DNA from: a virus
Length of the DNA: 64,000 bases
Direction: 5' to 3' (one strand)
Virus genome (UHGV): UHGV-1351333
Shown here: positions 2,470 through 64,000 of the stretch, piece after piece
How the letters are laid out: every line of letters starts with the position of its first letter
How positions within the stretch are numbered: position 1 is the stretch's first letter
Notes under the pieces: model-generated
Databases searched by the model: none
Told to the model about the DNA's origin: nothing
What the model saw: only the letters and a program-made list of their open reading frames with translations
Program-made: the position numbers and the translations under genes

Positions 2470-2486
2470 TTTGCAATCATTGCAAA
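2470..2486. promoter_or_regulatory. 7-3-7 inverted repeat TTTGCAATCATTGCAAA
   Basis: Perfect palindrome in the intergenic region upstream of the 2666 gene. Confidence 0.7.
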
Positions 2487-2665
2487 TTCGTTTGTATAGA
2501 CCGAAAATGATTATATAGACCTTTTCCTTATTTTCGTTTTTCGTCATTTGCCCTATGGTCGGATAGTTCCCTCCCGCGAGGGCCGGGAACCCTGAAAACT
2601 TCCTGTGGTTTTCAGGAGCATCACAATTAAGCAGGACAAAAACCAAATAGAAAGACAGCACAAAA

Positions 2666-3583
2666 ATGTACGGCACCAGCCCTATGTTTACCATGCCCGT
2701 GTCCTCCGTGGATTCCGGGCGCAGCAATGATAACTACGGAAATTGGAACAATCCGTTTGTGTACCTCGTCTGGATGTGGGCGTTCTCCATGTTCGGCGGC
2801 AATGGCCTGTGGGGCAACAGGAACGGAGCGGGAACCGTAGAAACCCAAGCGATTACCGCGTCTCAGGTCGATGACATCAGGGCGCAGGTAGCCGCTATCC
2901 GTCAAGGGATTGAATGCGGCGACGCAAATATCATGCGGGCCGTTGACCAGCTCGCCGATACCGCACGCGCCAACCAGATTAAAATTGACGGAGGCTTTAC
3001 GTCCGTCAACCAGAACCTGTGCTCCGGCTTCGGCTCCGTCAACTCCAACATCTGCGACGCTAAGACGGCCGTTCTTGGCGCCCTCTGCAACATCGAGCAC
3101 AATCTCGCCATGCAGGGATGCCAGTTCGCCAACCAGATGCAGCAGTGCTGCTGCGAACTCAAGACCGCTATCGGCGATGTCGGATGCGGCGTAGAAAAAG
3201 GCCTCCTGAATCAGACGATTCAGCTCAACCAGGGACTGTGCGGCGTCAACCAGAACATTCAGCAGACCGGCGCGCAAATTGCCAATGGCATTTCCAACCT
3301 CGGATTTACCATTCAGCAGCAGTTCTGCAACACGAACAGCCTGATTGAGGCGAACACGAGAGCCGTGCAGGCGGAAGGCGCCATGACCCGCCAGCTGCTG
3401 GTTGACCAGGTGAAGGACGCCGAAATCTCCCGGCTTCGCGGCATCGTCGCTGAAAACAGCCAGCAAAGGCAGACTACGGAACTGTTTGCCGCCCAGCAGG
3501 CCCAGACGGCTACTCTGCTGCCCCTGTTGCAGCAGATTATCAACAACACGACGAAAACCACCAGCCCCGCGACAGCTGCCTAA
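2666..3583 (+). CDS. Hypothetical protein, N-terminal hydrophobic segment, Cys/Gln/Asn-rich
   Basis: 305-aa ORF after an intergenic promoter region. Hydrophobic WMWAFSMFGG segment near the N-terminus and 11 Cys in a Q/N-rich repetitive C-terminal region. No recognisable family. Confidence 0.45.
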   Translation: MYGTSPMFTMPVSSVDSGRSNDNYGNWNNPFVYLVWMWAFSMFGGNGLWGNRNGAGTVETQAITASQVDDIRAQVAAIRQGIECGDANIMRAVDQLADTARANQIKIDGGFTSVNQNLCSGFGSVNSNICDAKTAVLGALCNIEHNLAMQGCQFANQMQQCCCELKTAIGDVGCGVEKGLLNQTIQLNQGLCGVNQNIQQTGAQIANGISNLGFTIQQQFCNTNSLIEANTRAVQAEGAMTRQLLVDQVKDAEISRLRGIVAENSQQRQTTELFAAQQAQTATLLPLLQQIINNTTKTTSPATAA

Positions 3584-3599
3584 TCGTCAATTCAGGCTT

Positions 3600-3628
3600 C
3601 CCGCCTTTTACCGGGCGGGGGCCTTTTT
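3600..3628 (+). terminator. Intrinsic terminator
   Basis: CCCGCC-loop-GGCGGG followed by GCCTTTTTG, after the 2666-3583 gene. Confidence 0.55.
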
Positions 3629-3684
3629 GAATCCTGGGGCGGCAACGCCCCGAAACACCAATCCAGAAAGGAGAATTGACGATA

Positions 3685-4326
3685 ATGTTCGGAAATATGA
3701 TGCCCGGAATGCCGGGCGCAAATCCCGCCGCAGGAGGCATGGGCATGCCTCCCATGTTTCCAGGCATGCCGGGTATGGGTTCCGCCATGCCGACCCAAGC
3801 GGAGGTGCAGGCTCAAATTGAGCAGCATATCCAGGAGGCGATGGTCCGAATGCTCGAAGAACCGACCGCGGAAGTAGAAGCCGCCATATTGAAGGCGTGC
3901 AAAAAGCTGCTCCGCAAACACGGCTTCCTGGAATCGGACGCGATACGCAATAAGCACCGACGCGAGGAATCGGACAAGGAGGAACATGCCCATGACCCGT
4001 TTTCCGCGAACAGCGAAGAGACGGAAGACGAGGACCGCTGCCATGCCTGGGGCGAAAACCCCATGGGGCGGTTGTTCCTGCTCGTCGATGAATTGCAGGA
4101 ACTGGCCTACAAGGGCCACGGGCCGCAGGTCATCGAAAAACGCTTCCGGGAAGCATGCTCGGACGAAGTATGCGATGAAGAACTTAAAGTCATGGGCCGT
4201 CTGGTCCTGGCTGACGGGTTCCGAAAGCATGCGTCGGCCCTCGGAATGACCAAAGAAGCCTTCAAAAAGCATCTTGCGTCCATTGCCGACAAAATCAAAC
4301 GCAACGACACGGACGACGAAGACTGA
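3685..4326 (+). CDS. Hypothetical protein with Met/Pro/Gly-rich N-terminus
   Basis: ATG preceded by AAAGGAG about 12 nt upstream, one of few clear SD sequences in the window. Low-complexity MPGMPG repeats, acidic C-terminus. Confidence 0.5.
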   Translation: MFGNMMPGMPGANPAAGGMGMPPMFPGMPGMGSAMPTQAEVQAQIEQHIQEAMVRMLEEPTAEVEAAILKACKKLLRKHGFLESDAIRNKHRREESDKEEHAHDPFSANSEETEDEDRCHAWGENPMGRLFLLVDELQELAYKGHGPQVIEKRFREACSDEVCDEELKVMGRLVLADGFRKHASALGMTKEAFKKHLASIADKIKRNDTDDED

Positions 4327-6512: not shown

Positions 6513-6515
6513 AAA

Positions 6516-6532
6516 TTTGCAATCATTGCAAA
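6516..6532. promoter_or_regulatory. 7-3-7 inverted repeat TTTGCAATCATTGCAAA
   Basis: Intergenic, upstream of the capsid gene. Followed by TTTTATTGAC. Confidence 0.7.
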
Positions 6533-12535: not shown

Positions 12536-12552
12536 TTTGCAACGATTGCAAA
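12536..12552. promoter_or_regulatory. 7-3-7 inverted repeat, spacer variant TTTGCAACGATTGCAAA
   Basis: Intergenic, 27 nt upstream of the 12579 ATG. Confidence 0.65.
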
Positions 12553-16532: not shown

Positions 16533-16549
16533 TTTGCAATCATTGCAAA
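16533..16549. promoter_or_regulatory. 7-3-7 inverted repeat TTTGCAATCATTGCAAA
   Basis: Between the tape-measure stop and the 16559 ATG. Confidence 0.7.
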
Positions 16550-19836: not shown

Positions 19837-20205
19837 TCAGGCCCATATTACGTTTCCGGATTCATCAATATCTACGGCTTTTTTGTGCGCCAGCCGAGCT
19901 TCATTTAATTTCCGGGAGTCCCGGATAACGTCGCCGGTTTCCGGGTATTCCTTGAATACGTTAATATAATTCAATAAACGTTCCTTGTCGGAATATACCA
20001 CGGCCGCATTTACAACATAGAACTTCCCTTTATCATCGTACCGACGGATAACGCTCGTATCCGTGGCGCAACGCCATGTGTCAAAGTCGCGGGTAATATA
20101 AACGCGCTCATGCGCTCTAAGCCATATCATTGTTTCCCTGGCGATAAACTCCGGAACAAGAGTAAAGAGCTGCTCTTTTGTTAAAGTAGTATTGCTTATA
20201 ATCAT
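19837..20205 (-). CDS. Hypothetical protein
   Basis: 122-aa minus-strand ORF driven by an inverted copy of the conserved promoter-leader element. Confidence 0.45.
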   Translation of the reverse strand: MIISNTTLTKEQLFTLVPEFIARETMIWLRAHERVYITRDFDTWRCATDTSVIRRYDDKGKFYVVNAAVVYSDKERLLNYINVFKEYPETGDVIRDSRKLNEARLAHKKAVDIDESGNVIWA

Positions 20206-20330
20206 ATTGACCCGTGGGGTTTCTTAATGAGAAGGTTTTTCCCTCCCTTTGATGAGAACAATTTAACACTATATTTTAAAAATTGCAAGAGAAAAAAGCA
20301 TAAAAATGATTTTTTATTACATCAAATCAA
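20206..20330 (-). promoter_or_regulatory. Inverted copy of promoter-leader element lacking the palindrome
   Basis: The reverse complement contains ...TCTTGCAATTTTTAAAATATAGTGTTAAATTGTTCTCATCAAAGGGAGGGAAAAACCTTCTC upstream of the 19837-20205 minus gene. Confidence 0.55.
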
Positions 20331-20510
20331 TCGGCAGCAAATAATACGCGCATTTAATCAGCACGATGCCCGCCAGCCAGTTAAGAACCGCCATAACCGG
20401 CATTCGGTGCTTGATGCAGGAAAAAGTGCAAAGCATCATTTGAGCGCCAAGAATCGTTATGGCCCCGGAAATTAAAAATTGCAAAAACATCGATTGGCGG
20501 TCAGCGCGTG

Positions 20511-20843
20511 CTAACGTCTTGAAACTTTTATCGCGGAAGGCTCGTATCGGTACACTATTTCCTCGAAACGCTTTTCAGCATCCGCCAGGGTAGTAAGCGT
20601 CCAGCCATAAGTTCCCCAGGAATTGGGGCCCGGAAGATACTCGTCGCCAATCTGGTGGAACTTCGTAGGGGACGTGACCGTTTGAACCCGCATAACTTCA
20701 TAGCTGATTTGTCCGTGTTTTTCCTGCTCATATATAACCACATTTCCCTGCCTTCGGATTAAACGATAATTAAACCCGTATTTCCGGAACTCGGATTTAA
20801 TTTTTCTTGATGGCGAAGTTATCGGCTTATCTTCCATGCTCAT
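20511..20843 (-). CDS. Hypothetical protein
   Basis: 110-aa minus-strand ORF in a three-gene minus operon. Confidence 0.4.
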   Translation of the reverse strand: MSMEDKPITSPSRKIKSEFRKYGFNYRLIRRQGNVVIYEQEKHGQISYEVMRVQTVTSPTKFHQIGDEYLPGPNSWGTYGWTLTTLADAEKRFEEIVYRYEPSAIKVSRR

Positions 20844-20871
20844 ATTATTTTTTTATTAAAAAAATTGTAGT

Positions 20872-21093
20872 TTAACTCCTAAACTTGCGCCTCACCCGGC
20901 GCATTTTCAGCTCCGAAGAAACAGAAGGAGTATTTGACGCTTTTCGCAGTTCCAGCAACTGGTCCACAGTGCGCTGTAGAGCAATTATGCCTTTCTCCAA
21001 TTCCACTTTATTTATCCGGTAATTATCCGCAATCCAGTCTATATTTCTGGACAGGTTGTGCCGGTGTGCGTCTATGTCCTGCCGCGGCTCCAT
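20872..21093 (-). CDS. Hypothetical protein
   Basis: 73-aa minus-strand ORF. Confidence 0.35.
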   Translation of the reverse strand: MEPRQDIDAHRHNLSRNIDWIADNYRINKVELEKGIIALQRTVDQLLELRKASNTPSVSSELKMRRVRRKFRS

Positions 21094-21114
21094 ACATTTA
21101 TTATTAACTTTTAT

Positions 21115-21143
21115 CCTCAGGGGGGGTAATTCCCCCCCCCTCC
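21115..21143. other. G7-TAATT-C9 homopolymer hairpin
   Basis: GGGGGGGTAATTCCCCCCCCC between two minus-strand genes. Confidence 0.5.
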
Positions 21144-21156
21144 CTGGAAGCAGGAA

Positions 21157-21432
21157 TTAACGCAGATTAAAGATGAACTCGTAGCCGCTGGAATACCGGT
21201 CAATATCTACGGATTCCACATCCATGCAGGTCATATCCCGCACAAGCTGTTTCAAATGGCGCAGGGCTTTTCCGCAGCGGGAATCGTCTTCAATATCCTT
21301 GGGGTCCAGTTTTACCATTATTGAAGTTTGAGAGATAAGAGAAGCGCTGCGTACTTCGCTGCTGCAAAAATACTTTTGAAAGTATTTATTGATTTCTGAA
21401 ACTCCGTTTTGCAGTGTGGTTTTAGTATTCAT
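21157..21432 (-). CDS. Hypothetical protein
   Basis: 91-aa minus-strand ORF immediately downstream of the inverted full promoter-leader element. Confidence 0.45.
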   Translation of the reverse strand: MNTKTTLQNGVSEINKYFQKYFCSSEVRSASLISQTSIMVKLDPKDIEDDSRCGKALRHLKQLVRDMTCMDVESVDIDRYSSGYEFIFNLR

Positions 21433-21567
21433 TTTTTTCTAACAGGTTTTTTGTTTTTTTTCTCTCAGGAGCTTTCCTCCCTTTGATGAATGTAATTTAA
21501 CACTATATCTTAAGAATTGCAAGAGAAAAAAGAGTTTTTCACGAAAAAAATTTGCAATCGTTGCAAA
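21433..21567 (-). promoter_or_regulatory. Conserved promoter-leader element, inverted (full copy) driving minus-strand operon
   Basis: The reverse complement of 21465-21567 reads TTTGCAACGATTGCAAA...CTCTTGCAATTCTTAAGATATAGTGTTAAATTACATTCATCAAAGGGAGGAAAGCTCC. Confidence 0.65.
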
Positions 21568-21620
21568 TTCCGAAAATCAATATTGCTCCTAAAAAATCAA
21601 GCAATTATATTGGCAAAGAC

Positions 21621-22673
21621 ATGATAACCTTAAACCATCTTGGAATATCCCACGCGGTCATCATTGCCTTGCCGGAACGCGCTGAACACGTCGCCCGCCT
21701 GAAAAACTCCATGGCCTCCGGGGGCATTGACCCGGAAAACAGCGTTACCCTGCTTCCCGCCTGGAACGGTCGAGAGCTGTTTCCTCCGAAAAGCTGGAAA
21801 GGGACCCGCGGCGCCTGGGGCTGTGTGCAGTCCCATATCCGGGCCTTGCGGCTTGCGGTTAAAAATAATTGGGAGTCAGTGCTCATCCTAGAGGATGACG
21901 CCCTGTTTTGCCGCAACGCCGCCGCCAGATTGCAGACGCTTTTTTCCGCGCTGCCGAAAGACTGGCGCCTGCTCTATCTCGGAGGGCATCACCAAAACTG
22001 GCCGAAGGAGGTCCACGCGGATTATATCCTGGCCTCCGGCATGACGGCCACTCATGCTTATATCGTCAAACGGGAATCTATCCCGTGGCTTATTAAGCAC
22101 ATCGCCTATTATCCCGACTACGAACAGCAGCAATGGGGAGTTGACCAGCAAATCCGGAACGCCGTTTACCGGGGCGACATCCTCCAATACGCCCCGCGCT
22201 GGAATATCGTAGGACAGCAGCGGCAGGAATACAGCACCATTGCCCATTCCAGGGCCGGGAACCGGGAGCGCTGGTGGGAGCATTCTCAAAATGACCAGTT
22301 CCGCCTGCTTCCGCTTCTGCTGCTGCGGGAGCCGCTAACCGTGGAGGACGTTGACGGGCTTGAGGAACTGGTGGACGTCGCCCCCGAAAAAAGCGTCGAA
22401 TGCCTTTTGGAGAAAACAGAAGATATGGCCGGCGCCATCATTGAGGCGCTTTCCTGCAGCGCGCGGGGGGCATTCAGCCATCGGCGCGTCCCTGCCCTGT
22501 ACTATACTGACCGTAAAGCCGCGGACAGGTGCGCCCGCCTATGGTCCGCGGAATGCCTGTTTGCTGATGTTGACGATTCCGAACAAACCAGGAAATCGCT
22601 TATTGCCGCCCTGCGCCGCATTGTCGACTATGCGGAAAATCCGGACATGAACCCGGACGTGAACAATGATTAA
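21621..22673 (+). CDS. Glycosyltransferase family 25-like (LPS glycosyltransferase-like)
   Basis: AVIIALPERAEHVARL...WKGTRGAWGCVQSHIRALRL...VLILEDDALF...WRLLYLGG matches the GT25 pattern VINL.R..dR......WkG..GalGC.lSH......LILEDD...dw.i.yLg. First ATG in ORF 21552-22673. Confidence 0.6.
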   Translation: MITLNHLGISHAVIIALPERAEHVARLKNSMASGGIDPENSVTLLPAWNGRELFPPKSWKGTRGAWGCVQSHIRALRLAVKNNWESVLILEDDALFCRNAAARLQTLFSALPKDWRLLYLGGHHQNWPKEVHADYILASGMTATHAYIVKRESIPWLIKHIAYYPDYEQQQWGVDQQIRNAVYRGDILQYAPRWNIVGQQRQEYSTIAHSRAGNRERWWEHSQNDQFRLLPLLLLREPLTVEDVDGLEELVDVAPEKSVECLLEKTEDMAGAIIEALSCSARGAFSHRRVPALYYTDRKAADRCARLWSAECLFADVDDSEQTRKSLIAALRRIVDYAENPDMNPDVNND

Positions 22674-23733
22674 CTTTCTTCGCTACACTGCTATGGATTA
22701 TTTATTTCCGCATTATTTCGACCGGATTGTCGTCATCAACCTTACTAAAAACCCCGAACGGTTTGCCCGCATTGCCGATGAATTGAAGTATAAATGCCTG
22801 GCGGGGCCTGATGATATTGTCAGGCATGAAGCCGTGCACGGGGATTCCATGCCGCATCCGGCGTGGTACAGGGCCGGAAACGGGGCGTGGGGGTGCTTGT
22901 CCAGCCATATCGAGGCGCTGGAAGACGCCTGGAACACCGGAAGCGAGCACACGCTGATTATCGAGGACGATGCCGTATTCGCCAATGACCTTTTGACGCG
23001 GTTCCCGGAAACCATGAAGGAAGTTCCGAAAGAATACGGGCAGTTGTACCTTGGGGGACAGCACCAGCAGGCCCCGGAGGCCCTCAGCGATACTTTGTGG
23101 CGCGGCACGTCTGTCAATCGGACGCATTGCTACGCCGTTACCCGGAAGTTCATTCCGGAGATTCTCGCCCATATCATGGATTGGGATACCCATATCAAGG
23201 CTGCCGGAAACCCGCTCCACATCGACCACACGCTGGAAATCGGGCATCAGCGCAGATACTGGCCCGTATTTTGCCCCCGGTTCTGGTTTGCCGGTCAGGG
23301 GGAAAACCAATCTGACATCAACGGCAGGCCCCAGCGGGAAATGTGGTGGGAGTACTCCGTGAAACAACAGCATTTAGAGCTTCCTTTGCTTGTGTTACGG
23401 ACCGCCGACATGCCGGAACACGTTAAAGACCTGGCGTTTGTCGGCTGGCCGTCGGATTTGGACGCCCGCGGCGTCAACAGGAAAATCGAAGAGGCTAAAA
23501 AAGACAAGGCTACCCTGTTGCGGGAAATCAGCTGGCTGGCGTATGTAGGATTCCAGCACCACAGCCTTCCGGCGGTTTATCTTCCGGAGCCGGAACCGGT
23601 TTCCGCATTGCAGCGCCTGTGGTCCGGTGAGGTTATCGACACGGCGCATGCGGATGATGCGGATATCCACCGGATGCGCCGCATCCTGGAATTCGCCGAT
23701 AATCCGGAAATGCTGAAATATAGATTCCGGTAG
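22666..23733 (+). CDS. Glycosyltransferase family 25-like, tandem paralogue
   Basis: RIVVINLTKNPERFARI...AWYRAGNGAWGCLSSHIEALE...LIIEDDAVF...GQLYLGG. Same domain order and similar C-terminal tail (ADNPEML vs AENPDMN) as the upstream gene. Confidence 0.6.
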   Translation: MINFLRYTAMDYLFPHYFDRIVVINLTKNPERFARIADELKYKCLAGPDDIVRHEAVHGDSMPHPAWYRAGNGAWGCLSSHIEALEDAWNTGSEHTLIIEDDAVFANDLLTRFPETMKEVPKEYGQLYLGGQHQQAPEALSDTLWRGTSVNRTHCYAVTRKFIPEILAHIMDWDTHIKAAGNPLHIDHTLEIGHQRRYWPVFCPRFWFAGQGENQSDINGRPQREMWWEYSVKQQHLELPLLVLRTADMPEHVKDLAFVGWPSDLDARGVNRKIEEAKKDKATLLREISWLAYVGFQHHSLPAVYLPEPEPVSALQRLWSGEVIDTAHADDADIHRMRRILEFADNPEMLKYRFR

Positions 23734-24395: not shown

Positions 24396-24412
24396 TTTGC
24401 AATCATTGCAAA
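24396..24412. promoter_or_regulatory. 7-3-7 inverted repeat TTTGCAATCATTGCAAA
   Basis: Directly after the spanin-candidate stop, at the left edge of the AT-rich iteron region. Confidence 0.7.
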
Positions 24413-24505
24413 CCGGAAAAACCGGAGATTCAGGACCGTAATCCTACGGTCTTTTTTATTTGTCAATACTGTTTTTTACGCTTTTATAACTTATTAAACC
24501 TCATA

Positions 24506-24852
24506 CAGTTATAAATAATATGCACTGAGAAATCGCTAGTTTATTCATTTGTTATTCACTATTAACGAGTTATAAATAATTTGCACTTTTGAAAGTTCAG
24601 GGCATTCATAAGTATTTGCGTATCAGGCAGTTATAAACGCGATAAACCTGGAAAAACACGCTAAATTCTCATTTTACGTAAATATAACCGGCTAAGCTTC
24701 ATGCAGTTATAGATATTATGCCCTTTCACCGAAGTGCATTTATTTTGTAAATTACTGAAAGTGAAAGGGTTATAACTGCGGCCAAAGCGCGGAAACCTCA
24801 ATTTTTGCCTTTATAAGTGGCTGAACTGCATTTAGTTATAAATAATTTGCAC
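24506..24852. repeat. Iteron array (consensus CAGTTATAAATAAT[AT]TGCAC) in AT-rich non-coding region
   Basis: Direct copies at 24506, 24567, 24628 (degenerate) and 24704, with 61, 61 and 76 bp spacing. Inverted partial copy at 24779-24788. Best copy at 24834-24852. Confidence 0.7.
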
Positions 24853-25052
24853 TCTGAGAGTGCATTAATATAAATATATAATAATATTCGTTCCTCATAT
24901 TATTATACATTTACATTTCCCGTCCTGACCTAAAGGTCAGTACGTCGCCTGGGCTGTTCCGCCCAGGCACTCTGGGACAGGGACAGAGAGAGGGTTCCAG
25001 CCTGTGAAATTTCCGCTACTGTTCCGGCGGATTTCATGTTACGGTTCCGGAG

Positions 25053-42397: not shown

Positions 42398-42939
42398 CAT
42401 TGAGCGAAACTAACAAACCCGCTGTGGAGGCCGGGGCCGGGCATGATTCTGCGCGGCTTCATGGCCGCAAAAAAAAATACGAAACAAAGCGTGAAATGCA
42501 GATAGCGAAAAACCGCTACCACAAAACGCTGACTTATAAAGTCAAAAACCGGGCGCGGTATCATGTGGATTCCGATTACCGGGAATCGGTGCGACTGCAA
42601 AACCGGAAAGCAAATGAACGGAAGAAACGCATCATGCTGGCGCAAGCAGTCGTCCGGGGAGGGAAGTACCTGCGTGCGGTGATGAATGAACCGCCCATTG
42701 TCGTTGCCGGGGAAGAGCTGATAACAAGAAAAAGATTTTTGGAGTTAATCAGCCGGTCATATCCAACCCTGGTACGGTGGAGGGTACACAGGAAATTCAC
42801 CGTGGAGGAAGTGCACATTTCCGTGGTCCGGAACGGTCGGATTGTCCCCCGTCTGGAACAGATCGCCTACCGGAAAAAAGACCTAATCCAGTTCATCGAC
42901 GCCAACCGAGAATATGTCGGGTTGACGAAAACGAATTAA
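42394..42939 (+). CDS. Hypothetical basic protein
   Basis: 181 aa, Arg/Lys-rich. ATG overlaps the upstream stop. Confidence 0.4.
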   Translation: MTLSETNKPAVEAGAGHDSARLHGRKKKYETKREMQIAKNRYHKTLTYKVKNRARYHVDSDYRESVRLQNRKANERKKRIMLAQAVVRGGKYLRAVMNEPPIVVAGEELITRKRFLELISRSYPTLVRWRVHRKFTVEEVHISVVRNGRIVPRLEQIAYRKKDLIQFIDANREYVGLTKTN

Positions 42940-42951: not shown

Positions 42952-42968
42952 TTTGCAACGATTGCAAA
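42952..42968. promoter_or_regulatory. 7-3-7 inverted repeat TTTGCAACGATTGCAAA
   Basis: Intergenic, 34 nt upstream of the 43002 ATG. Confidence 0.65.
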
Positions 42969-46781: not shown

Positions 46782-46919
46782 TTTGCAATCATTGCAAATT
46801 TTTTTCTCAAAAAAGTTCTTTTTTCTCTTGCAATTTATAAAATATAATGTTAAATTGTTTTCATCAAAGGGAGGGAAACTCCTGAGAGAAAAACAAAAAA
46901 CCTGAACATTATTAATACC
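46782..46919 (+). promoter_or_regulatory. Conserved promoter-leader element (full copy)
   Basis: TTTGCAATCATTGCAAA...TCTTGCAATTTATAAAATATAATGTTAAATTGTTTTCATCAAAGGGAGGGAAACTCCTGAGAG..., then ATG at 46920. Confidence 0.7.
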
Positions 46920-47897: not shown

Positions 47898-47940
47898 CCC
47901 CTAATCCGGAGTGATGCCCGGATTAGGGGATTTTTTATTT
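47898..47940 (+). terminator. Intrinsic terminator
   Basis: CCCCTAATCCGG-AGTGATGC-CCGGATTAGGGG followed by ATTTTTTATTT. Confidence 0.8.
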
Positions 47941-47945: not shown

Positions 47946-48080
47946 TTTGCAATCATTGCAAATTTTTTTCGTGAAAAACTCTTTTTTCTCTTGCAATTCT
48001 TAAGATATAGTGTTAAATTACATTCATCAAAGGGAGGAAAGCTCCTGAGAGAGAAAAAACAAAAAACCTGTTAGAAAAAA
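47946..48080 (+). promoter_or_regulatory. Conserved promoter-leader element (full copy)
   Basis: Same architecture as 46782-46919. Leader hairpin GGGAGG-AAAG-CTCCT. ATG at 48081. Confidence 0.7.
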
Positions 48081-48554: not shown

Positions 48555-49160
48555 ATGAAACCGATTGCTCAACTCCAAATGACCGATTTGCTGCACGACG
48601 CCGATTGCCTTTCAGAAGAGGCGTACCGTTCCCGGCTGCGCTACCTTGGCAGGCTGGTCGATTCGCCCCGGAACAGCTCTATGGCGCGAAAAGTGCGGAA
48701 CACGAGCGCTAAACGCTGGAACCGTTTGATTCAGCTTGTGCATAATGGTTATATTGCCTCCGACGATTCCCTGGACCGCCACAGCCGCAGCTGGCTGGAA
48801 CCGGCGCTAGGCTATACGGCGCTGCACGTTTTCATTTCCGCCGGAAGAAGGCGGCTGTTGTTTGCCCAGATTATGATGGACGAGCTTTTTTCCGGGCGGG
48901 AGCCTGCCGGTTTTGCCGAACTTATCGCTCTTGTAGCCAAAGGGGTGGCCTTCGGACGCTGTAGTCCCGGAATCCGGTACGAACTGCCCCCGAAAATCAG
49001 GCAGGAGCTGGAATTGAACGCCGGAAAGGGGTGCGGGACGAGCGTCCGGAAAAATCTGGAAGACAGCATTCGGCATCTGGACGGCATCAGCCGGAAGTGC
49101 ACCGGGGAACCTGTCATTACTCACATGCTTTACTATGGCCTCCGATTGTTCTCCTGCTAA
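48555..49160 (+). CDS. Hypothetical protein
   Basis: 201 aa. Its 3' end overlaps the HsdM-like ORF by 26 nt in another frame. Confidence 0.4.
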   Translation: MKPIAQLQMTDLLHDADCLSEEAYRSRLRYLGRLVDSPRNSSMARKVRNTSAKRWNRLIQLVHNGYIASDDSLDRHSRSWLEPALGYTALHVFISAGRRRLLFAQIMMDELFSGREPAGFAELIALVAKGVAFGRCSPGIRYELPPKIRQELELNAGKGCGTSVRKNLEDSIRHLDGISRKCTGEPVITHMLYYGLRLFSC

Positions 49161-49905
49161 GCCTGCCGCGGACCATTCGGCGAAACCGAGTTTCTATTCG
49201 GTATTGGAAAAACTGCCGCTGGACCACCTGCGCTCGTCCGAACGGTTTTTTCTGTGGCTGGAATTCGTTTTTTCCGTCATGTCCGGAACGCCCCTGGATT
49301 CGTCCGCCGCTGAAAAAATGGGCAGGGGCAGGAGCAGTTACGAGACCGTTCAGCGGGGATTCCTGGACTGCATTGCGCTTCTTGGTGACGAGATGGAGCG
49401 GAGGCCGTATGAAGACCTGCTGGGCGGGTACCATGAAATGCTGAACAGCCGGATAGACCGGACCGTAAACGGTCAATTTTATACTCCGACAAACATTTGC
49501 CGCATGATGGCCCGCATTACCGTATCAGAGCAGTTTGCGGAAAACCTGAAACCGGGGGAAGTCATATCGCTAAGCGAACCTTCTTGCGGCTCCGGGCGGA
49601 ATGTGCTTGCCGCGGCGGAAGTCCTTGGCCGCCACCGCTCCAAAATGAGAGTAACCTGCACCGATATTGACATCCGGGCGTGCTGGATGTGCTACATCAA
49701 CCTGACCATGTGGGGGATTCCGGCAACAGTCGTCCACGGAGATTCCCTGCGCCTGAAAGAATGGGGGCGCTGGGTCAACATGTTCTGGCAGCTTGGGGAG
49801 GCGGAAAGAAAGCAGCAGCTTAAATCAAAAAAAATCATGGATGCGATTAAAAACCTTCAATTTGCCGAATCGGACTCCCCGGCTTTTCCCCGAAGCCGAA
49901 ATTGA
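49135..49905 (+). CDS. HsdM-like N6-adenine methyltransferase-like protein lacking NPPF/Y catalytic motif
   Basis: GQFYTPTNICRMM (gamma-class motif X), EPSCGSGRNVL (motif I), CYINLTMWGI and HGDSL blocks as in HsdM. No NPP[FY] motif before the stop. Confidence 0.5.
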   Translation: MASDCSPAKPAADHSAKPSFYSVLEKLPLDHLRSSERFFLWLEFVFSVMSGTPLDSSAAEKMGRGRSSYETVQRGFLDCIALLGDEMERRPYEDLLGGYHEMLNSRIDRTVNGQFYTPTNICRMMARITVSEQFAENLKPGEVISLSEPSCGSGRNVLAAAEVLGRHRSKMRVTCTDIDIRACWMCYINLTMWGIPATVVHGDSLRLKEWGRWVNMFWQLGEAERKQQLKSKKIMDAIKNLQFAESDSPAFPRSRN

Positions 49906-52498: not shown

Positions 52499-52628
52499 TT
52501 TGCAACGATTGCAAATTTTTTTCGTGAAAAACTCTTTTTTCTCTTGCAATTTTTAAAATATAATGCTAAATTACATTCATCAAAGGGAGGGAAACTTCCT
52601 GAAATTAAAAAACCGAAAATTAAAGATA
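52499..52628 (+). promoter_or_regulatory. Conserved promoter-leader element (full copy)
   Basis: TTTGCAACGATTGCAAA...TCTTGCAATTTTTAAAATATAATGCTAAATTACATTCATCAAAGGGAGGGAAACTTCCTG... ATG at 52629. Confidence 0.7.
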
Positions 52629-53003: not shown

Positions 53004-53020
53004 TTTGCAATGATTGCAAA
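53004..53020. promoter_or_regulatory. 7-3-7 inverted repeat TTTGCAATGATTGCAAA
   Basis: Intergenic, 40 nt upstream of the 53060 ATG. Confidence 0.65.
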
Positions 53021-54218: not shown

Positions 54219-54354
54219 TTTGCAATCATTGCAAATTTTTTTCTCAAAAAAGTTCTTTTTTCTCTTGCAATTTATAAAAAACAATGCTAAATTACATTCA
54301 TCAAAGGGAGGAAAGCTCCTGAGAGAAAAAAAACAAAAAACCTGAAACAAGACA
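54219..54354 (+). promoter_or_regulatory. Conserved promoter-leader element (full copy)
   Basis: Nearly identical to the 46782 and 47946 copies. ATG at 54355. Confidence 0.7.
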
Positions 54355-59219: not shown

Positions 59220-59316
59220 TTTGCAATCATTGCAAATTTGCAAGCCATGGCTAAATAGTTTCTTTTTTTTCTTGCAAAATGTTATATATGCGTTTCTTTG
59301 TATAGATTAAACAGCC
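59220..59316 (+). promoter_or_regulatory. Palindrome plus adjacent third TTTGCAA half-site and promoter-like boxes
   Basis: TTTGCAATCATTGCAAA followed directly by TTTGCAAGCC, then ...TTCTTGCAAAATGTTATATATG. At the left border of the AT-rich island, upstream of the ParB-like gene. Confidence 0.6.
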
Positions 59317-59856
59317 ATGGAAAATAATAAAATTATTTATTTATCGCCTGATAAACTTATTGAGTATGATAATAATACCCGTCTTCATGATGAGGAGCAG
59401 ATTAACCAAATTTGTAGGTCTATTCGTGAATTTGGATTTACAAATCCTATTCTTATCGATGAAAACAATATTATTATTGCTGGACACGGACGTAAAGCCG
59501 CCGCAATTAGGCTTGGGCTAAAAACAATCCCCGCTATCCGATTATCTGGATTAACGGATAAGCAAATAAAGGCACTGCGTATTGCCGATAATAAGCTTGC
59601 ACTTAATGCGGGCTGGGATGATGAGCTATTAAAGTTTGAGATTTTAAGTCTGCAAGAGAGCGATTTTGACTTAGAGTTATTAGGCTTCTCCGTGGATGAA
59701 ATTGACAGCTTTCTTGTCGCAGAGGAAGAAATAAAAGAGGAAGGAGAATTAAAATGCGAAGAAGCTAAAGAAAAAATACCAAATGATTTTAAAACTGTAG
59801 AAGAAACAAAACTAGTTCATAGATGCCCGCGATGCAATTATGAATTTAATGACTAA
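59317..59856 (+). CDS. ParB-like nuclease domain protein
   Basis: IEYDNNTRLHDEEQINQICRSIREFGFTNPILIDENNIIIAGHGRKAAAIRLGLKTIP matches the ParB N-terminal (ParBc) domain. Lies in an island of about 30% GC. Confidence 0.6.
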   Translation: MENNKIIYLSPDKLIEYDNNTRLHDEEQINQICRSIREFGFTNPILIDENNIIIAGHGRKAAAIRLGLKTIPAIRLSGLTDKQIKALRIADNKLALNAGWDDELLKFEILSLQESDFDLELLGFSVDEIDSFLVAEEEIKEEGELKCEEAKEKIPNDFKTVEETKLVHRCPRCNYEFND

Positions 59857-59876: not shown

Positions 59877-60941
59877 ATGGAGTATAAGATTCCGACAGTT
59901 TTAGAAATCAAAGAGCGTCTTGCCAAGGAGGGGCCATTATTTAATGTTGTTTCATTGTTTGCCGGTGGCGGAGGAAGTTCATGCGGCTATAGAATGGCCG
60001 GAGCCAAGGTACTCGCAATAAATGAATTTATACCTGAAGCAAGAAATACTTATCATGCTAATTGGCCAGATACTACAATCTTTCCTTGCGACGTGCGAGA
60101 CTTAGACGCAAATGATATTTTAAGAGCTATTAATATGGCGCCGGGTGAACTTGATGTACTTGACGGGTCTCCACCCTGTTGCGGGTTTTCTTCTTCCGGA
60201 AAAAGAAGTAAAGGATGGGGGCAAAATAGGAGATATTCTGACTCAGCCCAGGTAGGAGTTGAAACTCTTTTTTTTGAGTACATCCGAATTTTGCGAGAAT
60301 TAAAGCCTAAATGTTTTATCGCTGAAAATGTTGCTGGATTAGCACAAGGCGTATCACGCGGTTATCTTAATGAATTTCTAAGAGCATTCTCCGCATCTGA
60401 TTATATATGTAAAGCAAAAATCCTTAATGCACAGTATCTTGGTGTACCACAGTGCCGACATAGACTTATTTTTGTCGGTGTTAGAAAAGACTTATGGCGT
60501 TCAGAGTTTGAAAATAAAACGCATCCGAAACCGTTTAGCTATTTAATACCGCTCAAAGATGCTTTTCGCGGTATTATAAATACGTCAGAAGAGCTTGCGC
60601 AGGTTGATATATCAAAATACGTGATTTATCAACGTCTTATAAAGTTGAAAAAGGGGAAATCTGACTCTGAAAGGTTTAATCTGGTAAAAGCTGATGATAA
60701 TAGGCCGTCTCCGTGCATAACGGCGTCCACTGGACGTTTAGGGTGCGCTTGTGCCTGTCATTGGGACAATAGAGCTTTTACACTTAAAGAGCTTAAAAGA
60801 ATAACAAGCGTACCAGACGATTATATATTAACAGGAACATATAGCCAGCAGGTTGAACGGCTCGGACGTATGGTCCCACCCTTGATGATGAAAGCAGTCG
60901 CAGCAAATCTTTATACTAATATTTTAAAGGAGTTAAAATGA
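59877..60941 (+). CDS. DNA cytosine-5 methyltransferase
   Basis: Motif I FAGGGGSSCGY, motif IV GSPPCCGFSSSG (PC catalytic dipeptide), motif VI IAENVAGL. Lies in the AT-rich island. Confidence 0.8.
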   Translation: MEYKIPTVLEIKERLAKEGPLFNVVSLFAGGGGSSCGYRMAGAKVLAINEFIPEARNTYHANWPDTTIFPCDVRDLDANDILRAINMAPGELDVLDGSPPCCGFSSSGKRSKGWGQNRRYSDSAQVGVETLFFEYIRILRELKPKCFIAENVAGLAQGVSRGYLNEFLRAFSASDYICKAKILNAQYLGVPQCRHRLIFVGVRKDLWRSEFENKTHPKPFSYLIPLKDAFRGIINTSEELAQVDISKYVIYQRLIKLKKGKSDSERFNLVKADDNRPSPCITASTGRLGCACACHWDNRAFTLKELKRITSVPDDYILTGTYSQQVERLGRMVPPLMMKAVAANLYTNILKELK

Positions 60942-61594
60942 AAATTCCAAAGAGCTGGACATTTAAAGATAACCAAGTCGCAAAGAAATTTGACTCTCAT
61001 GTACGAGAGCAGTTGCCGTGGTATAACATTCTTACAAATCTTGTGGCTATTGTAGCTAAACATTACATGCCGGAGAATGGCATTGGATATGATATTGGCG
61101 CAAGTACAGGCAACCTCGGCAATGTACTTAAAGATATTATAAAATCCAGAAGATTTAACTGGATAGGAATCGATAATTCTGAGCAAATGAAAGCGTATTA
61201 TCGTGCTCCCGGAAAGCTTGAAATTTGTGATGCTATAGATTACGATTTTCAATCTTTCGATATTGCAGTCTGTTTTTTAGTCCTTATGTTCTTTCCTAAA
61301 GATAAGCGAGAACTCTGGTTAAAAAATCTTATTGAAAAAGCAAAGTTTGGAGCTGCGATAATTATCGTAGATAAAGAAGAATTAAAGGGTGGAATTTTAT
61401 CGACAGCTTTATACCGAGCAACAGTTTTAAGTAAGTTAGAATATACGACTGCTGAGAAAATTCTTGAAAAAGAATCATCTCTTTGCGGTATTCAAAACCC
61501 ATTGCCTCGTGATTTTATGCTGCAATTTGGCGCAACAGAGATTTTCAGGTTTGGTGATTTTGCCGCATGGGTTATCGAGAAAAAATGGCATTAG
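60938..61594 (+). CDS. Class I SAM-dependent methyltransferase, CmoA-like layout
   Basis: WTFKDNQVAKKFDSHV...LPWY..., YDIGASTGNLG (motif I), WIGIDNSEQM, VCFLVLMFFP...AAIIIVDK parallel CmoA blocks (WTFDERVAEVFPDM, YDLGCSLG, IAIDNSPAM, LNFTLQFL...LVLSEK). SD-like AAAGGAG upstream. Confidence 0.5.
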   Translation: MKIPKSWTFKDNQVAKKFDSHVREQLPWYNILTNLVAIVAKHYMPENGIGYDIGASTGNLGNVLKDIIKSRRFNWIGIDNSEQMKAYYRAPGKLEICDAIDYDFQSFDIAVCFLVLMFFPKDKRELWLKNLIEKAKFGAAIIIVDKEELKGGILSTALYRATVLSKLEYTTAEKILEKESSLCGIQNPLPRDFMLQFGATEIFRFGDFAAWVIEKKWH

Positions 61595-61861: not shown

Positions 61862-62218
61862 TTGTTTTATGCCGCCCCTCCGGATATAACGGACGGCGTC
61901 ATGATTGTCTTAAATACTCCCATTGCTACCATACCGGGACGCCGGTACTGCATTACCACCGTATCATCCGTTCAGGTGATAGCTGCCATTGACGGGGAAG
62001 AATTCGACCTGCTGGGGGGCCTTCCCGTTTCCGGCCAGGCGCAGTTCGTCGCTCCGACGGACCACATTGAAGTGCGGGACGCATCAACCCCGGAAGAAGA
62101 AACGGCCAGCGCGGCTGAACCGTCCGCGGAACCGTCAAGCGCCATGTTCGGCACAGTGTCCCTTGCCGGGGATGCGGCTTCCGTAGCCGGGAACATTGTC
62201 GAGATTGTGCGCAGTTGA
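61862..62218 (+). CDS. Hypothetical protein
   Basis: ORF-table coordinates; alternative start codon. Ala/Ser/Glu-rich C-terminus. Confidence 0.3.
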   Translation: MFYAAPPDITDGVMIVLNTPIATIPGRRYCITTVSSVQVIAAIDGEEFDLLGGLPVSGQAQFVAPTDHIEVRDASTPEEETASAAEPSAEPSSAMFGTVSLAGDAASVAGNIVEIVRS

Positions 62219-62484
62219 CAAGCTATCCCGGATTTGGCAGGATGCTCCCCGCATGCACGATTCGCTTCAAAGGCGTGGATTGAAACGATAAGGGCATGCG
62301 CTCTAGGTGTGTGCCTATTCCCGCCCTGTTCTGCGGACGGGAACAACAAGGGGTGCCCTTCCTTTTTTTCCAGGATGGCTGCGGCTGAAAAACCGCGGGG
62401 GAAGAAGGAAGGGCATTTTGCCGTGTTCATTCTTTTTTGTTTCTCGATTTTTTTATGTCTGAATCTGCTGCCCCCCCCTGCCGG

Positions 62485-63219
62485 ATGCACTGCATTATTC
62501 CGCTGAAAGCCCGCTCCGTGCGTTGTCCGGGAAAGAATTTCAGAACCTGCAACCCGTATCTTTCCGGGGGCCTGTTCTCTTTGTGGGAGGTGACGGCCAG
62601 ATACATCAGGGCGGAGGGCTGGGAGCCGGTCATCTCCTGTGACAGCCCGGAACTGCTGCGCGGCATTGCCCGGCGCGGATATGAACGCACCGTCTTATGG
62701 CGCCCTGACCCGGAATCCCCCTACATGCAGGGACACATCAGCCAGGTTGCCTTTAATATTGAAGCCAAAGATTCAGACCTGGTTTGCATAGCCCAGGCAA
62801 CTTCCCCGGTGCGCCGCTCCGGACTGCTCCGGGCCATGTACGCCCTGATGTCTTCCGATACCGCCATTCAGGCGGCGTTCACAGCGGAACGCCTGAAAAT
62901 CTGCGGCGTCCTGAACGGCGCAGTTTTCGGTCAGGATGAAAGCCAGTCCGCCCGGCACTGGTACGACCATTATGACGGGGGGCTTCTCCTGCTGCGCTAC
63001 GGAACCCTGAAACGCTGCCCTGCCCGGACGGTCGTGCATCCTGGGCTGCTGTCCGGCTCCGGCGACCGGGTGGCCGTGTTTTACCAGTTTTTGCCCTGGT
63101 CATTTCAAATTGACACGGAAGACGACTATTCCTTTTATCTGCAAATGCGTCCTGACGGGAATGAAAGCCCCCCCCTTTCCCGGACGGCCGAACACCCGTA
63201 CCGGATATACCCGGACTGA
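62485..63219 (+). CDS. Cytidylyltransferase (CMP-ulosonic/nonulosonic acid synthetase-like, CTP_transf_3)
   Basis: MHCIIPLKARSVRCPGKNF parallels IIPAR.GSKG...KN of KdsB/NeuA-type enzymes. AQATSPVRR parallels LQPTSPLR. A C8 tract lies 7 nt upstream of the ATG. Confidence 0.6.
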   Translation: MHCIIPLKARSVRCPGKNFRTCNPYLSGGLFSLWEVTARYIRAEGWEPVISCDSPELLRGIARRGYERTVLWRPDPESPYMQGHISQVAFNIEAKDSDLVCIAQATSPVRRSGLLRAMYALMSSDTAIQAAFTAERLKICGVLNGAVFGQDESQSARHWYDHYDGGLLLLRYGTLKRCPARTVVHPGLLSGSGDRVAVFYQFLPWSFQIDTEDDYSFYLQMRPDGNESPPLSRTAEHPYRIYPD

Positions 63220-63224
63220 CCAAT

Positions 63225-63824
63225 ATGATTGTGCTGATAGGCAACGCCCAGGAATCCGAGCACCGGCTTAACGACTGCTCCGCCATAATTGATTCCGGCA
63301 AGCCCCGGCTGGTGGTGAGGGTGTCGAAAATGTGCAACTACGATTCCGGGAAAACCGGAACGCGTTGTGACTGGGTATTCCTCAACCCCAATCCCGCCTA
63401 CTGGACATTCCCGCCGGAGCGCCGCCATTGGGGCGTCCTCGCCGGCGCCAGTAAAATCATCATCACGTACCCGCCGCCCGGAACCATGAAAGACGGGCCC
63501 TGCATCCCTCCGTACTGGCGCGGGGAAGAGTACCGTTTCCTGCACCAGCACCCCTTTCTGGAATATTTGCCGGAACCGGTATTCCGGGAAGGAATGTCCC
63601 GGCGGTTTACGACATTCGCCTTTGCCCTGTGGGTGCTTTCGCGGCGTTTCCCGCACGAACAGATAGCCTTGCACGGATGCATCACCTCACAGGACGTCTG
63701 GCGCCGCGTCCGCTGGTGTCCCTGGCATAATGGCGTCGGAGAGTTTGCATTGTACGCCGACCTGTTCCGGAACGGTCGGATTTTCAGACTGGACGGCGAT
63801 GAATTATGCTTTGATGACTGCTGA
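63225..63824 (+). CDS. Hypothetical protein (possible partner of cytidylyltransferase)
   Basis: 199 aa, Trp/Pro-rich. Starts 6 nt after the cytidylyltransferase gene. Confidence 0.4.
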   Translation: MIVLIGNAQESEHRLNDCSAIIDSGKPRLVVRVSKMCNYDSGKTGTRCDWVFLNPNPAYWTFPPERRHWGVLAGASKIIITYPPPGTMKDGPCIPPYWRGEEYRFLHQHPFLEYLPEPVFREGMSRRFTTFAFALWVLSRRFPHEQIALHGCITSQDVWRRVRWCPWHNGVGEFALYADLFRNGRIFRLDGDELCFDDC

Positions 63825-63922
63825 TAACTGTACGAAAAAATCGTACAGTTGATATTCCTCCCATCAGGCCCTGCCCGGAAGCGCTTACCGGCAGGGCCGC
63901 AATATATCTTGTCCCCCCCCAA

Positions 63923-64000
63923 TTTGCAATCATTGCAAATTTTTTTTCGTGAAAAACTCTTTTTCCTCTTGCAATTTATAAAAAACAATGCTAAATTGTT
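63923..64000 (+). promoter_or_regulatory. Conserved promoter-leader element (truncated by window end)
   Basis: C8 tract then TTTGCAATCATTGCAAA...TCTTGCAATTTATAAAAAACAATGCTAAATTGTT. Confidence 0.65.

Follow-up and report, generated by a model that had tools for sequence, protein, structure and literature searches.

A multi-copy TGCAA palindrome in phage genome UHGV-1351333, a putative binding site of a conserved phage-encoded protein

The virus genome UHGV-1351333 carries 18 copies of a short palindrome with TGCAA half-sites in the stretch of 64,000 nucleotides (nt) that was analysed here and is called the window below. This palindrome is most likely the binding site of a conserved phage-encoded protein, and we treat it as a putative site of this kind. 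In the reading that we prefer, with a probability of roughly 0.55, the dyad would be an operator through which a dimeric phage protein punctuates transcription by the host polymerase along a co-directional genome. An operator for a dimeric phage regulator was one of the functions proposed in the original prediction, which had been made from the letters of the window, and it is the reading that best fits the dyad symmetry, the invariant arms, the lack of compensatory changes and the retention of the half-site across host phyla.

The window holds most of the genome of an uncultured tailed phage that is transcribed almost wholly in one direction. A tail protein with BACON domains, starts that lack a Shine-Dalgarno sequence and follow A-rich leaders, and promoters of the form TTG-N19-21-TAnnTT point to a host in the Bacteroidota. 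The encoded proteins include the tape measure, the major capsid protein, the large terminase, a family A DNA polymerase, DnaB, a helicase, RecA, RuvC, an AAA+ ATPase, three methyltransferases and a ParB-N-like protein. Close relatives are 90-95% identical at the amino-acid level and 86-88% at the DNA level. They include a contig of 83.6 kb, from which about 19 kb of genome beyond the window, carrying further copies of the palindrome, could be recognized.

Sequence, conservation and position of the palindrome

A pattern scan of the window found 17 exact matches to TTTGCAANNNTTGCAAA (TTTGCAA-N3-TTGCAAA). Among 100 dinucleotide-preserving shuffles the mean was 0.01 exact matches and 17 was reached in none, far from what chance would give. 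Allowing up to two mismatches added a single copy, TTTGCAACGATTACAAA at 29343, which has one mismatch. The exact copies lie at the predicted coordinates with the predicted set of spacers, and 29343 is degenerate as had been stated. The family is real, but it has 18 distinct copies and not 19, since the one placed inside 21433-21567 is the 21551 copy read on the opposite strand. The spacer is TCA in ten copies, CGA in five plus the degenerate copy, TGA in two and TCG in one. When the flanks of the 18 copies are aligned, AA precedes all of them (18/18), and a T follows in 16/18 and a second T in 15/18. The full element is thus a 21-base-pair (bp) dyad, AATTTGCAA-YSA-TTGCAAATT, with the centre (T/C)(C/G)A and the core TGCAA-N3-TTGCA. 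Since TTGCAA is its own reverse complement, the two copies of this hexamer may be seen as directly repeated just as well as inverted; the flanks, which extend the dyad, show that the inverted arrangement is the selected one. In searches of viral contigs the 21-mer was specific, whereas the 17-mer, with its 14 specified bases, gave a swarm of single chance matches.

Twelve of the intergenic regions that bear the motif were aligned to their orthologs in the relatives of 86-88% DNA identity. Each arm was identical at 154 of 154 ortholog positions (308/308 for both arms), while the 3-nt spacer was kept at 54 of 66 (82%) and the flanks at 73-88%. The degenerate state of 29343 is retained in the relatives. 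The centres of the orthologs vary among TCA, TGA and CGA only, with the central base flipping between C and G; these spacer changes would fit deamination at a putatively methylated central CpG. In no lineage are variants of the arms compensated: the 29343 copy has a C-A mismatch, and the variant TTTGAAAC of the more distant contig L127 has an A-G mismatch. In the recurrent L127 variant, TT-TGA-AAC, the stop codon of the upstream gene lies within the left arm and the next ATG follows 4-8 nt past the right arm. As RNA, the copies would form hairpins of -4.5 to -12 kcal/mol, with two G-C pairs per 7-bp stem, and 29343 one of -0.8 kcal/mol, compared with -23.9 kcal/mol for a neighbouring terminator. 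The invariant arms, the uncompensated variants, the weak RNA hairpin and the presence of terminators beside copies argue for strong purifying selection on the exact double-stranded sequence and not on base pairing. They also argue for recognition by a two-fold symmetric protein and disfavour a terminator or a purely structural hairpin.

All 18 copies are intergenic, as the original prediction had noted; the window has 52 gaps of 17 nt or more, amounting to 11.5% of its length, and 18 of these hold a copy. Their steadiest positional feature is an upstream stop codon, 0-28 nt away in about 14 of the 18. The next start codon lies about 9 to about 180 nt downstream (measured, about 9-179 nt), a wider range than the predicted 10-130 nt, and 24396 precedes a terminator and an iteron array instead of a gene start. 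The claim that the family is restricted to operon starts does not hold either: half of the copies have no nearby promoter, and some stand 9-10 nt before an ATG in the tail operon. The ATG is only 9-10 nt downstream of both 16533 and 29343, inside late or replication operons. A GC-rich hairpin with a T-run is found directly upstream of three copies and downstream of one (24396). One of these four, the terminator at 47898-47929, came from a terminator scan and folds at -23.9 kcal/mol; the other three were read by eye. Where all the elements occur, the order is stop codon or terminator, palindrome, promoter.

A repeated promoter unit of about 125 nt follows 9 of the 18 palindromes. In the example at 37792-37892 (plus strand), it is composed of T7, CGTGAAAAACTC, T6 and CTTGCAAT-N17-TAAATTAC, followed by the conserved leader TCATCAAAGGGAGG. 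In eight of the nine units (those measured, the variant unit at 59220 being excluded), the centre of the palindrome lies 36-38 nt upstream of the TTG at -33. Nine palindromes have no such unit, and four units have no palindrome. Three of the latter, at 26114, 28133 and 39805, correspond to the lone arm that had been predicted near TAnnTT boxes, with CTTGCAAT 15-19 nt upstream of the box; the fourth is at 20289 on the minus strand. Because promoter units occur without a palindrome, palindromes without a promoter, and terminators next to copies, the palindrome is a module that is separable from both. The suggestion that it consists of two back-to-back promoter elements is correct at the level of sequence in the lineage of the window, where TTGCAA equals the -33 hexamer. 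This resemblance is not defining, because relatives with TTGACA promoters retain the TGCAA palindrome.

The copies are also spaced more evenly than expected. Sites occur about every 3-4 kb in the window, and their spacing has a coefficient of variation (CV) of 0.47 (P = 0.0006 against uniform placement, P = 0.002 against random intergenic gaps). In the cultured Pseudomonas phage SM1, which is introduced below, the CV is 0.55 (P = 0.0004). The largest gap is about 6.3 kb in the window and in SM1. No evenness beyond random was found for the sites of two other phages, RcMenchie and Corndog.

The individual copies illustrate these arrangements. Nine of them head promoter units. The copy at 21551-21567 (TCG on the plus strand, CGA on the minus strand) heads a minus-strand unit and lies between divergent promoters, neither of which should transcribe it. 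The TGA copy at 35644-35660 is found 20 nt past the stop codon of the DNA polymerase gene and heads the unit before the open reading frame (ORF) 35765-37045; that at 37775-37791 (CGA) heads a unit of about 125 nt. The TCA copy at 46782-46798 lies 28 nt past the RuvC stop, and that at 47946-47962 (TCA) directly 3' of the canonical terminator at 47898-47929. The CGA copy at 52499-52515 abuts a TAA stop (0 nt), and the TCA copy at 54219-54235 lies 3' of a GC-rich hairpin with a T-run, a terminator by eye. At 59220-59236 (TCA), 13 nt past the stop of the terminase large subunit and upstream of the ParB-N-like gene, the unit is a variant, and the unit headed by 63923-63939 (TCA) is interrupted by the end of the window.

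Among the remaining copies, 2470-2486 (TCA) is 17 nt past the stop of a GT11 glycosyltransferase gene, and its ortholog in the relative L172 has the same arms with a TGA centre. The copy at 6516-6532 (TCA) is 3 nt past a stop codon, with the major capsid gene 156 nt downstream. In the tail module, 12536-12552 (CGA) is 19 nt past a stop with the next ATG 26 nt on, and 16533-16549 (TCA) is 14 nt past the tape-measure stop and 9 nt before an ATG, leaving no space for a promoter. The copy at 24396-24412 (TCA), 16 nt past a stop, is followed by a GC-rich terminator-like hairpin and T-run (about 24438-24460) and by the iteron array. That at 26367-26383 (TCA) lies 7 nt past a stop, 33 nt before the AAA+ ATPase gene. 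The degenerate copy TTTGCAACGATTACAAA occupies 29343-29359, the CGA copy at 42952-42968 is 12 nt past the stop of the basic, helix-turn-helix (HTH)-like ORF 42394-42939, and the TGA copy at 53004-53020 abuts a stop codon (0 nt), with the next ATG 39 nt on.

TGCAA dyads in distantly related phages

The wider family was reached through the AAA+ ATPase (phrog_8638), which led to cultured phages that share the gene order of the window. The shared backbone comprises the ATPase, DnaB, PolA, a primase, an SSB-like protein, a helicase, RecA, two resolvases, a Cas4-type exonuclease and the ParB-N-like protein. Every ATPase-led syntenic cultured phage that was examined has a multi-copy TGCAA/TTGCA dyad. 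In SM1 (Pseudomonas) there are 30 copies of RTGCAA-RCGY-TTGCAC, in RcMenchie (Rhodobacter) 27 copies of TGCAAT-CG-ATTGCA, and in HJ05 (Aeromonas) 16 copies of TTTGCAAC-YG-GTTGCAAA, all with an N4 centre. L338C (Rhizobium) has 43 copies of TGCAAC-N2-GTTGCA (N4) and 12 of TGCAAC-N1-GTTGCA (N3). The site of the P. aeruginosa phages SM1 and UF_RH6 is GTGCAAGCGCTTGCAC. Together with the lineage of the window, these phages form five lineages with only 30-45% protein identity in their core replication proteins, and their hosts belong to two phyla and three classes (Bacteroidota, Alpha- and Gammaproteobacteria). About 11 proteins, the ParB-N-like protein among them, are common to all five. Three further contigs with terminases 42-43% identical, L127, L129 and L131, have 4, 7 and 3 copies with an N3 centre.

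TGCAA dyads are absent from two other members of the comparison. L133, with a terminase about 36% identical, has none and carries TTGAAAA-N2-TTTTCAA four times; in this contig (IMGVR_UViG_3300023218_000003) the four copies lie within 21 kb. The Mycobacterium phage Corndog likewise has none and carries TGTTCGG-N3-CCGAACA 34 times. This suggests that the site and its presumed binder may change specificity together, in L133 as in Corndog.

A comparison of intergenic with coding occurrence in relatives, which the original prediction had proposed, supported enrichment at gene boundaries but not an exclusively intergenic location. By the deposited annotations, intergenic DNA makes up only 8-9% of the genomes of SM1 and RcMenchie, yet half of their sites are at gene boundaries. 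In both phages 10-13 sites per genome lie deep within genes, so that a restriction to operon starts fails here too. Because in-gene and boundary sites both far exceed chance, the site is selected wherever it can be accommodated, including the genes of SM1 and RcMenchie. Several details of the in-gene sites are recorded here as side observations. Counted by eye, the asymmetric centres of SM1 read GCGT in 9 and ACGC in 3 intergenic sites, and ACGC in 8 and GCGT in 1 coding site. Two annotated SM1 genes (e.g. record positions 3839 and 80845) open with ATG-CAA-ACG-CTT-GCA-C, the site beginning at the start codon. The 12 N3 dyads of L338C are mostly within genes. No U-tract was found 3' of the sites of SM1, RcMenchie, L338C and HJ05.

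The association with promoters recurs in the relatives in varied form. L338C has a promoter in 24 near-identical copies, all on the plus strand (TTGACAAAGGATCGGTTC-N-GTTAGATT). For 14 of these 24 repeated TTGACA-N17-TAGATT promoters, a site centre lies 14-19 nt, mostly 15-16 nt, upstream of -35, a layout shared by L127 and L129. Some of the SM1 sites overlap a hexamer like that at -10, or the predicted start (+1). The arrangement of site, promoter and next gene is found directly 3' of RuvC in all five lineages. We do not rely on the difference of about 16 against about 37 nt from site to promoter between lineages (about two helical turns), since the hexamers are numbered by different conventions (-35 and -33).

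The 21-mer gave isolated single matches only in 185,579 species genomes of bacteria and archaea, and no prophage locus with multiple copies was found. Because of this, and because the hosts differ in phylum, the recognizing factor should be phage-encoded. A search of the literature library returned no description of TGCAA dyads in phages, the matches to the motif string being primers and unrelated papers. The dyads are also absent from the account of the RcF cluster, the close relatives of RcMenchie (PMC8601537). The TGCAA dyad family appears to be previously undescribed.

Alternative explanations and candidate binding proteins

In the proposed mechanism, the 21-bp dyad would act as double-stranded DNA and as a high-affinity site for a dimeric, sequence-specific phage protein. 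The pair of site and protein would be ancestral to a large group of 65-110-kb siphoviruses with the ATPase-DnaB-PolA-primase-helicase-RecA-resolvase backbone. Once bound, the protein would gate or insulate one transcription unit after another through the adjacent downstream promoter of host type, and at junctions without a promoter it would serve as a roadblock or insulator against read-through. It might thus act by repression, by activation or as a roadblock, and the outcome would be a timed, genome-wide switch.

Several observations weigh against this transcriptional reading. Pfam and PHROGs searches of 71 window ORFs and 10 ORFs of relatives found no clear transcription factor, and the case for the best candidate, described below, consists of synteny, a sub-threshold HTH_17 match in a counterpart and a poor structural model. 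The site centre is at about -70 in the window and about -51 in L338C and many sites have no promoter, so that there is no uniform position, and a single transcriptional mechanism is not obvious from such variable positions. Many of the nine promoter-linked copies belong to near-identical duplicated units and are not independent evidence of a spacing constraint. In the proteobacterial relatives about 40% of the sites lie inside genes. The variable distance to promoters and these in-gene copies are the main weakness of a transcriptional role and the main support of one in genome organization. A T-run follows about half of the window copies (about 10 of 18), which makes a weak share in termination conceivable; T is present in 10-16 of the 18 copies over the seven positions 3' of the site, and the duplicated units supply much of this signal.

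Genome organization or clamp loading, in which the dyads would be sites similar to parS or to the OB operators of KorB, where a ParB-family or other phage protein spreads or slides in order to silence, compact, protect or organize the replicating phage DNA, is in our view improbable but worth keeping in mind. KorB on plasmid RK2 and SopB at the dispersed centromeres of phage N15 are the parallels for such loading or sliding. The even spacing with its largest gap of about 6.3 kb, the selection of relatives' sites within genes as well as between them, and the variable position of sites relative to promoters, as with the OB classes of KorB, all fit this explanation. So does the ParB-N-like protein, which is among the proteins of all five TGCAA lineages, and Corndog also has a ParB-like protein. 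This protein, however, matches only the N-terminal domain of ParB and Noc and has no recognizable HTH. Methyltransferase genes adjoin its own, which recalls the 'ParB_N_like_MT' class of the SM1 annotation, and no ParA-type partner was found in the scanned ORFs. Moreover, phages of the group appear lytic (PMC10281142), and prophage copies were absent from the 185,579 species genomes. A function at the RNA level, as a weak terminator or attenuator, a 3'-end stabilizer, or an element of processing or translational control like the repetitive extragenic palindromic (REP) sequences or the PeSL (promoter-early stem-loop) cassettes of T4, would agree with the position of copies 0-28 nt past the upstream stop and ahead of the next promoter, and with the many SM1 sites between a stop codon and the next ribosome-binding site. 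It would also account for the T-run 3' of about 10 of the 18 copies, as against AA only on the 5' side, and with the flanking A/T pairs the stem reaches 9-12 bp and -6.5 to -12 kcal/mol. We nevertheless hold it to be unlikely, since the arms do not vary and compensatory substitutions are absent from every lineage, the conserved degenerate copy reaches only -0.8 kcal/mol, and the GC-rich terminator-like hairpins that adjoin four copies would leave no need for a terminator there. The relatives' sites also lack a U-tract, 21551 lies between divergent promoters, and one half-site kept across phyla would be unexpected of a purely structural hairpin. An intrinsic terminator is disfavoured, the hairpins being weak (-4.5 to -12 against -23.9 kcal/mol) and lacking compensatory pairing.

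It is very unlikely that the palindrome itself is a promoter recognized by a polymerase or sigma factor that the phage encodes or modifies, whether as an N4-style hairpin, which the 7-bp stem and 3-nt loop superficially recall, or as the bidirectional or enhanced promoter for a phage sigma factor that the original prediction had offered. TTGCAA is identical to the -33 hexamer of the repeated promoters of the window, and copies precede many genes; but the window and about 13 kb of additional genome yielded neither an RNA polymerase nor a sigma factor, and promoters do not typically have perfect two-fold symmetry. Often a transcription start would not fit in before the ATG either: at several junctions the site stops 0-10 nt short of it, and in L127 the left arm overlaps the upstream stop. 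The central base flips between orthologs, which leaves no strand-specific loop signal, and relatives with TTGACA promoters retain the dyad. Specific candidates of this kind were rejected on spacing, symmetry or the absence of an encoded polymerase: the sigma-54 promoter (consensus TGGCAC-N5-TTGCW), because the TTGCA repeats are offset by 9 nt (N3) or 10 nt (N4) and lack a GG element; the lambda CII site (TTGC-N6-TTGC); and the N4-type hairpin promoter, in view of the missing RNA polymerase and the C/G flips of the loop centre. Just as improbable is a site for a host transcription factor, such as a LacI/GalR-type or other global regulator exploited by the phage. The sites of SM1 and RcMenchie, TGCAANCGNTTGCA, do fit the generic pattern of LacI/GalR and catabolite-responsive element (cre) operators, TGNAANCGNTTNCA, an even-length 14-bp dyad, and the string GCAAGCGCTTGC occurs in a paper on CcpA binding sites, consistent with that pattern. 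The half-site stays constant, however, while the hosts span Bacteroidota, Alpha- and Gammaproteobacteria, the odd 3-bp centre of the window misfits the consensus, and the 21-mer is no more than an isolated occurrence in species genomes. The LexA site of Bacteroidetes was rejected because its motifs, GGA-N5-TCC and CTAA-N5-TTAG, differ (PMC8565304). A selfish or recombinational repeat, that is, a transposase-spread palindrome of the REP type or of the miniature inverted-repeat transposable element (MITE) type, or a linker for module exchange with no regulatory role, would be suggested by the promoter units that carry the palindrome as duplicated cassettes flanking small ORFs and by the full recombination module of the phage (RecA, Cas4-type exonuclease and two resolvases). 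Recombination between the repeats of Cluster O mycobacteriophages has produced insertions and deletions (PMC4351075). This origin has little probability, in that the arms are 100% conserved at orthologous positions where the flanks diverge, the half-site is retained across lineages of 30-45% protein identity, the palindromes are perfect, and Pfam searches of the scanned ORFs found no HUH or REP-associated tyrosine (RAYT) transposase; in-gene copies, too, must stem from selected point changes and not from insertion.

From the symmetry and conservation of the site we infer that a protein binds it, and the best lead for this protein is the ORF at 42394-42939 (plus strand). It is a candidate only in the sense of a lead: a protein of 181 residues with an isoelectric point of 10.6, whose gene takes the conserved slot following that of the helicase and whose C-terminal segment resembles HTH_17. 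Candidate counterparts are gp78 and gp14 of RcMenchie, gp82 of HJ05, gp67 of L338C and gp44 and gp45 of SM1. An RxRxRY-DP-YR motif, the HTH-like segment and a C-terminal helix are common to the counterparts in HJ05, L338C and RcMenchie, in the last of which the annotation gives an HTH protein. The HJ05 counterpart matches HTH_17 (PF12728) at E = 9e-5, below Pfam's curated cut-off, and the RcMenchie counterpart has a palindrome inside its gene. The window protein itself had no Pfam match, and a homologue search with exhaustive HMMER found only species-level relatives and no deep homologues. A single-sequence AlphaFold model was poor (predicted local distance difference test score 53) except for a long N-terminal helix. 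This family evolves too fast for deep homology.

The ParB-N-like protein (59317-59856, plus strand), which is found in all five lineages and matches ParB_N at E = 5e-7, is the alternative candidate. No HTH was recognizable in it, and its box reads GHGRK, which we take to be closer to a nuclease/Srx-type box than to the GERRxRA box. Its PDB matches cover the N-terminal domain of ParB and Noc only, and PDB sequence searches of three binder candidates gave nothing useful. A third ORF, 30004-30912, has weak winged-helix and Phage_rep_O matches; it is more plausible as the initiator for the four 52-nt iterons described below than as the binder of the palindrome.

Comparison with known systems, genome context and significance

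The closest described analogue of the TGCAA dyad is the 17-bp repeat of the Cluster O mycobacteriophages. In Corndog this repeat has 34 copies with invariant arms and a variable centre (PMC4351075). The two elements share the design of 7-bp arm, 3-bp centre and 7-bp arm, the tens of dispersed copies, the enrichment at gene boundaries and the setting in a siphovirus genome of about 70 kb; neither is a repeat of host genomes, the Cluster O repeat being absent from that of its host. Corndog and the window phage also both encode an AAA+ ATPase of the phrog_8638 type, a ParB-like protein, methyltransferases and head-region glycosyltransferases. The half-sites, however, are unrelated, and about one third of the Corndog copies lie in genes as against none in the window. 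Kinship with Corndog was rejected, as only the AAA+ ATPase is shared besides a marginal 61-residue glycosyltransferase match (E = 0.003). The authors of the Cluster O study proposed a dimeric binding protein but doubted a transcriptional role because of the in-gene copies (PMC4351075), a doubt that applies to our preferred operator reading as well. We regard the comparison as a parallel and not as a mechanism.

For the sites at promoterless junctions, stoperators are the best precedent for a transcriptional role. There are about 25-30 of them per genome, in short intergenic gaps or over start and stop codons and oriented to transcription, and the phage protein bound to them stops the elongating host polymerase. 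Those of Cluster A phages (L5, TipsytheTRex) number 26, are 13 bp long and asymmetric, and are bound by the monomeric immunity repressor of a temperate phage (PMC9283540). The site of the window differs in being a perfect dyad whose central base flips between orthologs, neither asymmetric nor oriented, and no repressor or integrase was found by Pfam or PHROGs in the window and about 13 kb of additional genome.

On plasmid RK2, the OB palindrome of KorB, a ParB-family protein, reportedly serves global control from about a dozen or more positions whose distance to promoters varies. The presence of a ParB-N-like gene in all TGCAA phages resembles this system, but the sites differ in sequence and length, the phage protein has the N-terminal fold of ParB only, with neither an HTH nor GERRxRA, and no ParA or KorA partner was recognized. 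In the PeSL cassettes of T4, a stem-loop with an early promoter flanks small novel ORFs; the stem-loop is regarded as a terminator, and its conservation does not reach beyond the genome. The units of about 125 nt between 46 and 57 kb of the window are similar, but the palindrome also occurs free of cassettes, is conserved across phyla and adjoins true terminators. As to LacI/GalR operators, the 14-bp cores of SM1 and RcMenchie, TGCAANCGNTTGCA, fit the consensus including the central CG, while the centre in the window lineage is 1 bp shorter; the LacI-type HTH (PF00356) had no match in the 71 window ORFs and 10 ORFs of relatives. We take this resemblance as a lead on the style of recognition and not as family membership. 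The TGCAA dyad would thus join the genome-wide, operator-like repeats of phages, with unexpectedly deep conservation.

Some further features of the genome were observed. A megablast search with 20 kb against deposited phages gave no matches, and protein searches found no close cultured phage, the relatives being only 27-40% identical; some contigs of close relatives carry sample identifiers (7000000xxx) that resemble those of Human Microbiome Project samples. The Cas4-type exonuclease, RecA and two resolvases form a recombination module. At 24475-24853, in a non-coding stretch of 600 nt after the palindrome at 24396 and its terminator, there are four direct repeats of about 52 nt that share the ending GTTATAAATAATWTGCACT; they are probably the iterons of a replication origin. 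The only gene island on the opposite strand, at 19837-21432 (minus), contains three or four small ORFs, at least two of them with an early-type promoter unit of their own, and has a G9/C8 homopolymer hairpin near 21110-21140; it resembles a moron or accessory cassette. In the promoter units, a small GGGAG/CUCC(U) hairpin and an A-rich tract come after the conserved 5' leader (A)TTCATCAAAGGGAGG, at 37849-37892 and in the units at 46857, 48020, 52573, 54294, 21493 (minus) and 20259 (minus). An alignment gave no covariation support for this hairpin and Rfam no match to it; Rfam found no family anywhere in the window. The three methyltransferase genes (49135-49905, 59877-60941 and 60938-61594) encode one N6-adenine, one C5-cytosine and one unclassified enzyme, and two of them are directly 3' of the ParB-N-like gene. 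One GT11 and two GT25 glycosyltransferases are encoded (1736-2452 and 21552-23733), the relative L172 has a CysN-like GTPase and an adenosine 5'-phosphosulfate kinase for sulfate activation at 904-2473, beyond the window, and L338C has a 3'-phosphoadenosine 5'-phosphosulfate reductase beside its ParB-like genes. These sulfate and glycosyltransferase genes may serve to modify the virion or the host surface.

Multi-copy dyad repeats have been noted before in Cluster O mycobacteriophages, without explanation. The strong purifying selection on the TGCAA dyad and the retention of its half-site across host phyla imply an important and apparently unstudied phage-encoded recognition system. A broader proposal, which we make tentatively and with less than even confidence, is that an ancient cis/trans punctuation system is common to previously unconnected 65-110-kb siphoviruses of Bacteroidota, Alpha- and Gammaproteobacteria. 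If so, one fast-evolving protein would read the same half-site in all of them, with N3 or N4 centres, and control the genome from evenly spaced sites. This would be a form of global gene control or genome organization distinct from classical operators, stoperators and ParB/KorB systems, and the Cluster O repeats might be a parallel system in which both protein and site were respecified. Cultured and tractable members are at hand in SM1 and UF_RH6 (Pseudomonas aeruginosa), RcMenchie (Rhodobacter capsulatus), L338C (Rhizobium) and HJ05 (Aeromonas). The answer would aid the annotation of transcription units in uncultured phages, including human-associated phages of Bacteroidota, and may provide an orthogonal pair of operator and regulator for engineering.

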